DNA of 25,642 bases from the IMG/VR virus record IMGVR_UViG_2541047502_000029; one strand, written 5' to 3'. Positions 21,401-24,400 of this stretch are shown here, piece by piece. This DNA comes from a virus (taxonomy: Duplodnaviria > Heunggongvirae > Uroviricota > Caudoviricetes). The first letter of the stretch is position 1. Each line of letters opens with the position of its first letter. Position numbers: made by a program.

Positions 21401-24400
21401 CACCAGATAATTATTGCTGCTGACCGCGATCTCAACGGTGCGGGGCAAACAAGGGGCGCAGCTGTTACCGGGGCCTGCAATTGCACAATGGCGCTCCCGC
21501 CTGTGTTTGGTGACTGGAACGATGCATTCACGCAAAACGGCGAAGAAGCCACCCGGCATGCAATTCATGAAGTAATAAAACCAGCTGTTGCCAGCCCCTT
21601 CGACACAATGAGCGAAGCTGAATTTACCGCGCTGAGCGTCAGCGAAAAAGCGCAGAGGGTAGTGGATCACTATAAAAATTCACTGGCAGTAGACCCGAAC
21701 GGGCAGCTCCTTTCACGCTATGAGGCGGGGGCCTGGAAAGTTATCTATTACGCCGATTTTGCCCGTGATGTCGCTGCGCTGTTTCAGCGCCTCGACGCAC
21801 CTTTTTCATCCGCGAAAATTGCGTCTCTCGTGGAAACCCTCAAACTGATCGTTCCGCAACAGCAGAATCCGGCGCGGCAACTTATCGGATTTCGCAACGG
21901 TGTGCTCGATACCCGGACAGGATTGTTCAGCCCGCACGATAAGAAGCACTGGTTACGTACGCTGTGCGAGGTGGATTACACGCAGCCCGTTGACGGTGAG
22001 TCACTGGAAACCCATGCCCCGGCATTCTGGCGCTGGCTGGATCGTGCCGCAGGTTTTAATCCTGAAAAACGGGACATTATTCTGGCTGCATTGTTTATGG
22101 TGCTGGCTAACCGTTATGACTGGCAGCTGTTTCTGGAGGTCACTGGCCCTGGCGGAAGTGGAAAGAGTATTCTTGCTGAAATAGCAACCATGCTGGCGGG
22201 TGAAGATAACGCGACCTCGGCAACCATTGAAATGCTTGAGTCGCCAAGAGAACGAGCTGCGTTAATAGGTTTTTCACTGATTCGACTTCCCGACCAGGAA
22301 AAGTGGAGCGGTGACGGGGCCGGACTAAAAGCCATCACTGGCGGCGATGCGGTATCCGTTGATCCCAAATATCAGAACGCCTATTCAACCCACATCCCGG
22401 CGGTCATCCTGGCTGTGAACAATAATCCGATGCGCTTCACTGATCGTAGTGGTGGAGTTTCACGCCGAAGGGTGATCCTGCATTTCCCCGACCAGATAGC
22501 CCCGGAGGAACGCGATACCCAGCTCAAAGAGAAAATTGCCAGTGAGCTAGCGGTGATTGTTCGCCAGCTTATGCAGCGTTTCAGCGACCCAATGAGTGCC
22601 AGGACATTGCTTCAGTCACAGCAGAACTCCGATGAAGCGCTCACCATCAAACGTGATGCTGATTCAGCTTTTGATTTTTGCGGCTACCTTGAGGTCCTAC
22701 CTGACACCACGGGCATGTTTATGGGGAACGCTAATATTGTTCCACGTCAGCCTCGAACTTACCTCTACCATGCCTATCTGGTCTACATGGAGGCTAACGG
22801 CTATAAAAATACGCTCAGTCTGACCATGTTTGGCAAGGGGCTACCGTTAATGCTCAAGGAATATGGGCTGCAGTATGAGAAACGACGGACCAATCAAGGA
22901 ATGCAGACTAATCTGGCCCTAAGAGAGGAAAGCAATGCTGACTGGTTGCCAAAATGCGATGAGTTTGCAGCGAAATAACTGACCTAAGACCGGCTGTGCC
23001 GGTCTTAAATCCGCTACAGGAAATTATCTCAAAATATATATCGATAAAATTTAAAAGTTATATGCTAAGGCGTCAGCGGAAAATGCATCTAATTCATTGT
23101 TAGATGATGTTTATTTTTGAATTGATTTAAACATCCCATCGAGTTGTAATTTATTTATGTCGGTTTTCTTTATGGCTTTAATTAAGTTTTCAATAACTTC
23201 CAAAGAAAAAATTACATCTTTCTTTTCAATTCTAACCCCCCCGTGGTGGCTGCAAGCATTAAGGATGTCCTTTGTAATTTCAACATCATTTTTCATTAAT
23301 GGTTCATAGTCCAGAGCCTCAATAACAGAAACTAAACTACCTAGCATTTGCTCTTGGTATTGAACGTTGTTTAAATGCATTATACGAATATTAACAAGCA
23401 TGAGAATATATTCTAAATATCTCCTGGCAGTATTTCCTTTCTCTTGTAAAGAATCACGATCATATTCCTCAATACTCATGACTTCATTATGTAAAGAGGC
23501 TATTTTGTGCTCTGCTAATGAAATATTTATCGCATCCATGAGGTTTCGTGAGAAGCCTGTAGATGTAACATGACCATTTGCGGGCCTTGTTAAAATACAT
23601 GTAGTATAGCAATTTATATTTGGGGTCTGGATTGTCTCATTTACTCTTTTAACCGTTCTATAAACGTCTACCATATAAGAACCTGAGTTTTCAAATGAAC
23701 ATGAAGAGCATTTTGTATTATATATTCTATTTAGAGATAACTGATTGTGATAGTATCCCTTTAAGAAAGCATATATAGTGTCATTAAACTCGACAAACAC
23801 AACGGACTCAATATATATATGGAATTTATCATTGGGGTGCCACTCTAATTCAAGTCTTCTTGTAGAGTCATCAAAGGAAAAGTTTGAAATAAAATCCCAG
23901 TTACCTAAATCTATAAAATCAACGATATTTCTACCTGCACCATGGATATTTTTATTTATTAAAGTTGTGATTGAGTTTTTTATAATGTCCCAATCATGAA
24001 TTTCATGATCGAATTTATTATTGATGGTTTCTTTTATTTGATTGGAAAAGTTTGAATAACTAGTCACTTGTTAGCCTCAAAATTAATAATGAGTATTAAA
24101 ATTTAATTGATATTGTCTATAAAATGTAGCGATGCAATTTTATTGCAACGAAATGATTTTTACAACATACCATTATCGCTAAACAAAATCGCACCCATCA
24201 AATCAACTTACGTTACAATCACTACAAAGCGATTGCATTTAAATTCAAAACAGTTTTCTGTTGGGCGCATTTTTTGTTGTACTGGACTAAAGAGAAAAAA
24301 TGGGGTAAGGAACAAATACCTTCCGTGCTCAAAAATTAGGTTTTTATGCACTTATTAATCAGTCAAGGTGAACAGTAAAGTGTTCACTTCTTATCAATCG

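Follow-up and report, generated by a model that had tools for sequence, protein, structure and literature searches.

We investigated ECs_0304, a gene carried near the right end of a P4-like satellite in a 25,642-nucleotide stretch of viral DNA (IMG/VR record IMGVR_UViG_2541047502_000029, Caudoviricetes; the whole stretch is called the window below), which corresponds to the thrW island of Escherichia coli O157:H7. The coding sequence occupies 23111..24067 on the minus strand and specifies a protein of 318 aa, WP_000205213.1, labelled hypothetical protein in RefSeq; in strain Sakai it occupies positions 322025-322981 and lies within the feature annotated as 'prophage Sp2, P4-like phage'. Judged from its sequence and distribution, ECs_0304 is a horizontally mobile single-gene accessory module inserted in a minor cargo site of the satellite. 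We consider it very likely that the gene is cargo and that the C-terminal domain of its product has a HEPN fold, and some conflict-related role of whatever kind is probable. RNase catalysis seems to us evenly balanced between true and false, and the complete proposal, that the protein is a self-contained, sensor-gated HEPN RNase of the abortive-infection type, may hold as readily as it may fail. We put the gene forward as a credible, putative single-gene candidate for anti-phage or anti-plasmid activity.

The open reading frame (ORF) is intact and reads from 24067 to 23111, ending in a TAA stop codon at 23111-23113. It has a GTG start and a Shine-Dalgarno sequence of its own, as a preliminary description of this DNA had stated: GAGG can be read off the sequence at 24075..24078 on the minus strand, 7 nt 5' of the GTG, and the GTG stands where the N-termini of homologues align. 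A word-indexed search recovered 36 clusters of homologues, whose full-length identity falls as low as 44%. Every cluster comes from Enterobacterales or Aeromonas and is unnamed or labelled 'hypothetical'; most are 298-323 aa long, with one distant form of 477 aa plus fragments. The family is small, with 60 hits at E<1e-3, 18 of them below 1e-10, in an exhaustive HMMER search of 1.8 billion representatives. The ratio of nonsynonymous to synonymous substitution rates (dN/dS, Nei-Gojobori) is 0.06-0.2 against five homologous loci of 45-80% identity, at which synonymous sites are near saturation. Because of the 36 clusters, the 60 HMMER representatives and these dN/dS values, the ORF is not a chance occurrence, and purifying selection was found where the preliminary description had named a lack of codon-level conservation as grounds for dismissing it.

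Many O157:H7 and O55:H7 genomes match the surrounding region of 1.76 kb with 100% identity, and approximately 307 genomes carry it at full length, with the ORF 99-100% conserved in them. A decaying or non-functional ORF in AT-rich junk DNA might be suspected because the element's other cargo locus, which is Lamassu-like, is fragmented, but such a dead ORF is contradicted by the full-length conservation and by selection that persists against homologues with saturated synonymous sites, and the confident structure prediction described below also speaks against it. We rate decay as very improbable.

Some family members are longer. P0036, P0059, P0062 and P0076 (about 470-510 aa) have an extra N-terminal region of about 170 aa; among the three that were scanned, P0059 and P0076 gave weak DUF3775 hits in this region and P0062 a chance-level DUF5673 hit. 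In P0050 and P0055 (about 600 aa) it is the C-terminus that is extended, by about 250 aa. Judging by these long forms, the family core can carry further modules.

Every homologous copy has a GC content of 28-35% irrespective of its host, and nucleotide similarity between loci ends within a few bases of the borders of the coding sequence. We could not find a neighbour shared between loci in an all-versus-all comparison of ORFs of at least 60 aa within 4 kb in 12 contexts, and a search for a conserved partner gene or a conserved flanking RNA or non-coding segment likewise found none. On these sequence comparisons, the gene moves alone, as a single-gene module. The closest homologue (80% identity) is flanked by an orphan N6/N4 methyltransferase and ArdC within a Citrobacter integrative and conjugative element (ICE), with a type I restriction-modification (RM) system and an AAA_15 gene close by; this is the only copy with type I RM within approximately 5 kb. 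Other copies were identified next to Ogr/Delta in a satellite-like element of Providencia, beside the MobA relaxase of an integrative and mobilisable element (IME) in Pectobacterium, at the end of a lambdoid prophage in Pantoea, adjoining an MmeI-type RM system on a metagenomic contig, and in small chromosomal islets of Proteus, Serratia, Aeromonas and Enterobacter. A further copy follows straight after the integrase of another E. coli thrW island, beside the PADLOC candidate PDC-M60. This paralogue (45% identity) adjoins a three-gene cluster matching PDC-M60 (positions 9446-14327 of that locus), in which A is a protein of 1091 aa with a Y4jQ domain, B is receiver-like, and C combines a receiver with a lipase-like part.

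The position and composition of ECs_0304 distinguish it from the satellite backbone. The strong AT-richness claimed for it is borne out, with a GC content of 0.30-0.32 over 23001-24500 against 0.50-0.54 for the alpha primase-helicase gene (20001-23000); ECs_0304 alone has a GC content of 0.313, and of 0.285 at third codon positions. Its convergence with alpha is equally clear: alpha lies on the plus strand (20588..22978, with the RefSeq start equivalent to 20645), and between the two stop codons lies a GC-rich hairpin with a 14-bp stem (22981..23011), in a region homologous to the alpha terminator region of P4 (blastn to P4 4609-4713, E 5.5e-9), which is likely to be a bidirectional terminator. 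In phage P4 itself the order is alpha, alpha terminator, crr (two 120-bp repeats with type-I ori octamers), attP arm repeats, attP core and int, and there is no real gene between alpha and attP, just crr and the attP arm sites. In the window, P4 homology covers the 3' end of alpha and the terminator as far as 23006 (E 5.5e-9), and returns weakly and colinearly at 24365-24490, against crr. Because P4 homology flanks it, and the arm-type repeats and att lie beyond, the ORF is placed within a cassette of approximately 1.35 kb that, on this sequence comparison, belongs to the excisable element and separates the alpha terminator from crr/attP.

Other P4-like elements vary at this position, a point that the preliminary description had raised for checking. 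An element of strain EC-JS426, with an alpha region 75% identical, carries a gene for a 365-aa SIR2-like protein (PADLOC SIR2, E 3.8e-9; locus 5772-6869), and an element of strain 1368KP (91% identical) carries an HNH/type IV restriction endonuclease-like gene and a restriction-enzyme remnant (locus 6558-7494). The remnant is that of a phosphorothioate-dependent restriction endonuclease, and both satellites are direct examples of the minor alpha-att hotspot. According to a 2026 survey (PMC13586616), P4 has a minor hotspot for defence genes that lies between the primase and an att site, and ECs_0304 shows the features of that hotspot, namely an alpha-att location inside the excisable element and a content that is variable among relatives. 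The accessory loci of P4 (the psu-int locus with gop-beta-cII, PARIS, Lamassu and others, and the minor primase-att locus) resemble ECs_0304 in being AT-rich variable cargo, although the ECs_0304 family is absent from the described or PADLOC-modelled systems, and its site is the minor one and not the classical hotspot.

A backbone or replication function in this P4-like lineage, for example as an accessory factor at the crr-like region or att site, would suit a gene placed directly between the alpha terminator and the crr-like/att segment. The gene is, however, missing from P4 and from related elements with the same alpha, crr-like segment and arm repeats; it has homologues with no P4 genes around them, in ICEs, prophages and plain chromosome; and its base composition is foreign to the backbone. 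Its distribution effectively refutes a P4 backbone function, which we regard as extremely improbable. Homology to a P4 backbone gene, which the preliminary description had named as a result that would undo its proposal, was not found, P4 having only crr/attP there, and its view of an accessory gene at the boundary of a P4-like element is supported by position, distribution and foreign composition.

Structure prediction divides the protein into two domains. An AlphaFold2 model built on a 27-sequence alignment has a predicted local distance difference test score (pLDDT) of 83.5 and a predicted template modelling score of 0.80 for the full protein, and the N-terminal 166 residues modelled alone reach a pLDDT of 95. 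The N-terminal domain (residues 1-165; 23573..24067, minus strand) consists of two helices followed by a beta-rich body, and carries the near-invariant motif (I/V)VDF(I/L)DxxNWD at residues 47-58 (nt 23894-23929, minus strand), plus W76. It resembles small ligand- or protein-binding folds (YojF, ChuX/HutX, PH-like), and no nuclease or other enzyme fold appeared for it in the structure comparison. We interpret it, from the model, as a predicted sensor or binding domain, and the family that it forms is previously undescribed. The C-terminal domain (residues 166-318; 23114..23572, minus strand) is predicted to be a four-helix up-and-down bundle with a variable insert between helices 2 and 3, as in HEPN folds, and generic helical bundles obtained lower scores in its structure comparison. 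The structure prediction that had been suggested as a check thus yielded a HEPN-fold C-terminal domain, the effector type of many abortive-infection systems. The sequences in the PDB yielded no significant match when searched with profiles of the entire family, of the N-domain or of the C-domain, and a C-domain profile run on a large protein collection recovered just fragments of the same family and no new architectures.

Conservation of residues was read over 37 family sequences, down to 19% identity. N181, R215, E219, H274 and G277 are invariant, and D50, F51, D53, W57, D58, W76, P162, S173, N212, L242, G243, N270 and S273 are near-invariant. In the C-domain, the helix at 204-229 carries the family pattern G-N-x-x-R-R-x-x-E-x-x-L-K, which in ECs_0304 includes the helix-2 motif G-N-T-A-R215-R216-Y-L-E219-Y (23408..23437, minus strand; R215 and E219 invariant in 37/37), and the insert carries M-L-G. 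The pattern (L/A)-N-x-x-S-H-(D/H)-x-G spans the end of the core helix at 261-273 and the loop that follows, and corresponds to the motif L-N270-A-C-S273-H274-H-G-G277 at the end of helix 3 (23237..23263, minus strand; H274 and G277 invariant). The preliminary description had reported no recognisable motifs; this holds for library scans alone, since sharply conserved motifs emerge from the family alignment. HEPN domains are characterised by an acidic residue in helix 2, a catalytic histidine where helix 3 ends, and a polar residue after the arginine position (PMC3710099). The helix-2 acid is present as E219 in all 37 sequences and the polar residue as N270 in 35 of them.

The window protein gave no hit to DUF4145 (PF13643) at E<=10 and does not reach its gathering threshold of 23.1 bits; two distant members gave sub-threshold matches (12.9-14.3 bits, E 0.04-0.12, profile positions 13-87 of 88). 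Three distant members gave sub-threshold matches, with a best E of 7.8e-4, to the C-terminal end (profile positions 567-706 of 713) of AAA_13, which we take to be the Pfam model covering RloC/PrrC-type proteins. Because of the invariant R/E/H pattern and these sub-threshold hits, we would place the C-domain in the DUF4145-like/PrrC-RloC-like part of the HEPN superfamily, with no specific Pfam family assigned.

In the mechanism that we propose, the N-terminal domain would keep the HEPN domain inactive until it binds a protein or ligand derived from an infection. The HEPN domain, probably as a dimer, would then cleave RNA (tRNA, rRNA or mRNA) in a metal-independent manner. In this reaction H274 would serve as general acid/base, E219 would be the acidic residue of helix 2, and R215 would take the place of the missing canonical arginine. 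Translation would halt, and the invading phage or other incoming mobile element would fail to propagate, an outcome that would benefit both the satellite and its host.

RAZR (PD-T7-4) is a direct precedent for this logic, being a single-gene abortive-infection RNase that combines a zinc-finger N-domain with a DUF4145-type HEPN domain and is activated by phage proteins. A Cys4 zinc ribbon and a canonical R146...H154 pair distinguish RAZR from ECs_0304, which has a beta-rich domain of 165 aa, with no zinc-ligand pattern, and no canonical arginine. Mutagenesis and chemical rescue have implicated the triad R320/E324/H356 in the anticodon nuclease PrrC (PMC1484252). ECs_0304 resembles PrrC and RloC in its invariant R-x3-E...H within a HEPN-type helical domain, a residue equivalence that is inferred and not aligned above threshold, and the two would also share a latent-toxin logic. 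It differs from them in that it has no ABC-ATPase/NTPase N-domain, the N-domain being beta-rich with no hit to a P-loop family; there are no RM genes in the window element and there is no obligatory linkage to type I RM, unlike in PrrC; and the spacing from R/E to H is 55 residues, against 32 in PrrC. The c2405 family of Anantharaman et al. (2013) has been described as having a HEPN domain of DUF4145-like kind, 'conserved H but lacking R', joined to an N-terminal AbiTii domain (PMC3710099). ECs_0304 resembles it, by description only, in having an alpha+beta N-domain of approximately 170-180 aa and a C-terminal DUF4145-like HEPN domain in which the histidine is kept and the arginine lost, although no Pfam match to AbiTii, AbiJ-NTD or ApeA-NTD appeared for the window protein or among the top families of the 37 members scanned.

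Several observations weigh against an active, sensor-gated RNase. The canonical HEPN motif Rx4-6H is absent, with no arginine 5-7 residues before H274 (D267 and L269 stand there); column 267, an aspartate in the window protein, is an arginine in only 8/37 sequences, and an arginine 6-7 residues before the histidine is present in 9/37 members and missing in 28/37. HEPN domains without the canonical arginine in many cases bind rather than catalyse (PMC3710099). What connects the family to DUF4145 and PrrC is sub-threshold hits and motif register. Against Pfam, PADLOC, NCBIfam and PHROGs the window protein gave nothing beyond chance-level hits; in PADLOC-DB 2.0 none of the 5027 models, PD-T7-4 included, matched at E<=10. 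Foldseek found no solved structure like the whole protein, with nothing at E<0.03 for the full model against PDB, and we found no literature on WP_000205213, ECs0304 or the family. About one third of the contexts are plain chromosomal islets without flagged defence or mobile genetic element genes. In the AT-rich non-coding DNA upstream of the gene (24068..24364, minus strand), the number of sigma-70-like matches (three, at 24201-24172, 24165-24137 and 24119-24092) is not above chance expectation.

The loss of the canonical arginine in this subfamily also suggests a different possible function, that of a non-catalytic HEPN-like binder of RNA or nucleotides that serves the mobile element as an anti-defence or establishment factor, for example by sequestering or modulating an RNA or nucleotide signal of host immunity. 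HEPN families that lack the motif have been proposed as non-catalytic binders (PMC3710099), the closest homologue stands between an orphan methyltransferase and ArdC in what is a typical anti-restriction neighbourhood, another copy adjoins the MobA relaxase, and the N-domain itself is like small ligand- or protein-binding folds. Against this, R215, E219 and H274 remain invariant over very deep divergence in an arrangement like the PrrC triad, a feature that active sites show more typically than binding surfaces do, and several copies are found not in leading regions but in islets of the host chromosome or next to RM or candidate defence genes. We regard a binder of this kind as unlikely.

The HEPN fold and the preferential occurrence on integrative elements could also suit a selfish addiction or stabilisation toxin, self-regulated, that penalises loss of the element or excludes competing elements such as plasmids and has no anti-phage role. 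Plasmid exclusion has a parallel in Ishtar, a group of monogenic HEPN proteins with an extra alpha/beta domain that were recently reported to clear plasmid RP4 (bioRxiv 10.64898/2026.07.06.735840). By architecture ECs_0304 is similar to Ishtar, which is monogenic and joins a HEPN (DUF4145/DUF3644) domain to an uncharacterised alpha/beta domain, and they are alike in patchy distribution with other defences nearby; the domain order is, however, reversed, the HEPN domain of Ishtar being N-terminal. Addiction is also opposed by the presence of some copies in non-mobile islets and by the 12 contexts (±4 kb), in which no adjacent conserved antitoxin gene, as expected of a type II toxin-antitoxin system, was found, and by the lack of a conserved flanking non-coding segment. 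Because no such partner lies adjacent, a classical post-segregational mechanism would have to work without an unstable partner. Addiction in this form seems to us a distinctly unlikely explanation.

For the sensor-gated RNase, the kind of system is known, namely a single-gene HEPN effector in a mobile-element hotspot, and the cargo site has recently been described. What is new is the family itself, for which there is no Pfam or PADLOC model and no literature was found, together with its N-terminal domain and the non-canonical arrangement of the active site. A bolder version, which we advance as speculation and think improbable, is that the ECs_0304 family forms a novel class of HEPN effectors: its catalytic arginine would have shifted from the helix-3 Rx4-6H motif to helix 2 (R215, one turn before E219), a YojF/ChuX/PH-like sensor would gate activity, and the trigger would be specific to conflict between mobile elements (for example, a protein of a P2-type helper, or of a competing phage or plasmid), making it a satellite-borne weapon against mobile elements and not only against lytic phages. 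If active, ECs_0304 would be an unmodelled single-gene immune or conflict system in E. coli O157:H7 and other Enterobacterales, invisible to PADLOC and carried by satellites, ICEs and prophages. It would provide a concrete example for the little-studied primase-att cargo site of P4-like satellites, and would show a rebuilt HEPN active site (R-x3-E...H without the Rx4-6H arginine) with a new sensor domain. If inactive or non-defensive, it would still be a clean case of a lone AT-rich gene hopping among very different mobile elements.

We additionally delimited the satellite around the gene. The preliminary description had placed ECs_0304 just inside the right-end repeat, and this placement is correct, since DNA common to most E. 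coli genomes (the thrW 3' end and downstream, often overlapping an annotated tRNA-Thr) starts at 24601, and the Sakai Sp2 feature terminates at the equivalent of 24600. The attR site is a degenerate thrW 3' end, ggttcctattatcgcaccatttaaatcaa, at 24596..24627 on the plus strand, with the junction of island and core at 24600/24601. Between the ORF and this right end lie 533 bp of AT-rich non-coding DNA, which include the crr-like segment (24365..24490), with GGTGAACA and GTGTTCAC type-I ori octamers and a block of A/T runs, colinear with P4 crr through weak matches. Because the exact P4 ori octamer TGTTCACC occurs just once in the region, the crr assignment rests on these weak colinear matches and on comparison with a related element. 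A tandem repeat, AATGTGTATAGG, follows at 24519..24540 on the plus strand, and a second copy pair lies at 11841-11862, overlapping the int start codon; in strain EC-JS426, whose thrW site is occupied by a different P4-like element, the repeat again stands before the att core (locus ~7180-7210). Its presence at both ends of the element and in the EC-JS426 element fits integrase arm-type sites, and the repeats are probably, on this pattern, arm-type binding sites of Int.

At the left end, attL is a partial tRNA-Thr, its 3' half (11685..11732, plus strand), followed by int (11842-13074), an AT-rich cargo block with the Lamassu-type fragments LmuA, LmuC and LmuB (13078-16354), and delta, psu and sid (16764-18342, minus strand). 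P4-type isrK and C4 immunity RNAs occupy 19608-19841, upstream of alpha.

The cargo block at 13078-16354, which is the main psu-int hotspot, holds a Lamassu/ABC-3C type system that is decayed in appearance. LmuA is divided between two ORFs that overlap (13078-13494 and 13467-14084), LmuC is intact at 14069-14542, and LmuB is broken into at least 2-3 ORFs (15198-15788, 15788-16354, and probably also 14508-15167); the first Lamassu ORF is flagged as frameshifted by RefSeq in another O157 strain. A system synthesised from O157:H7 FRIK944 was reported to be inactive (Rousset et al. 2022), although it is not necessarily the same locus as the Sp2 Lamassu. The RNA immunity region of P4 type (19595-19841) looks intact, with Rfam matches to isrK (19608-19685), C4 antisense RNA (19754-19841) and the c4 target a1b1 element (19595-19647).

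Outside the satellite, the segment at 9540-9604 resembles, by eye, the 3' two-thirds of a tRNA-Ser (ending ...ccccctctctccgcca); ARAGORN made no tRNA call at 9540-9604. Another integrative element, placed between a P2-like remnant and the P4-like element, may have left this segment as an att remnant. The interval from the P2-like remnant to attL of the P4-like element also contains two ORFs: one at 10178-10930, in DNA of 33-37% GC (10178-11400), read by eye as putatively AraC-type, and, after it, a minus-strand ORF at 10972-11337 that by eye seems to be a truncated transposase-like gene.

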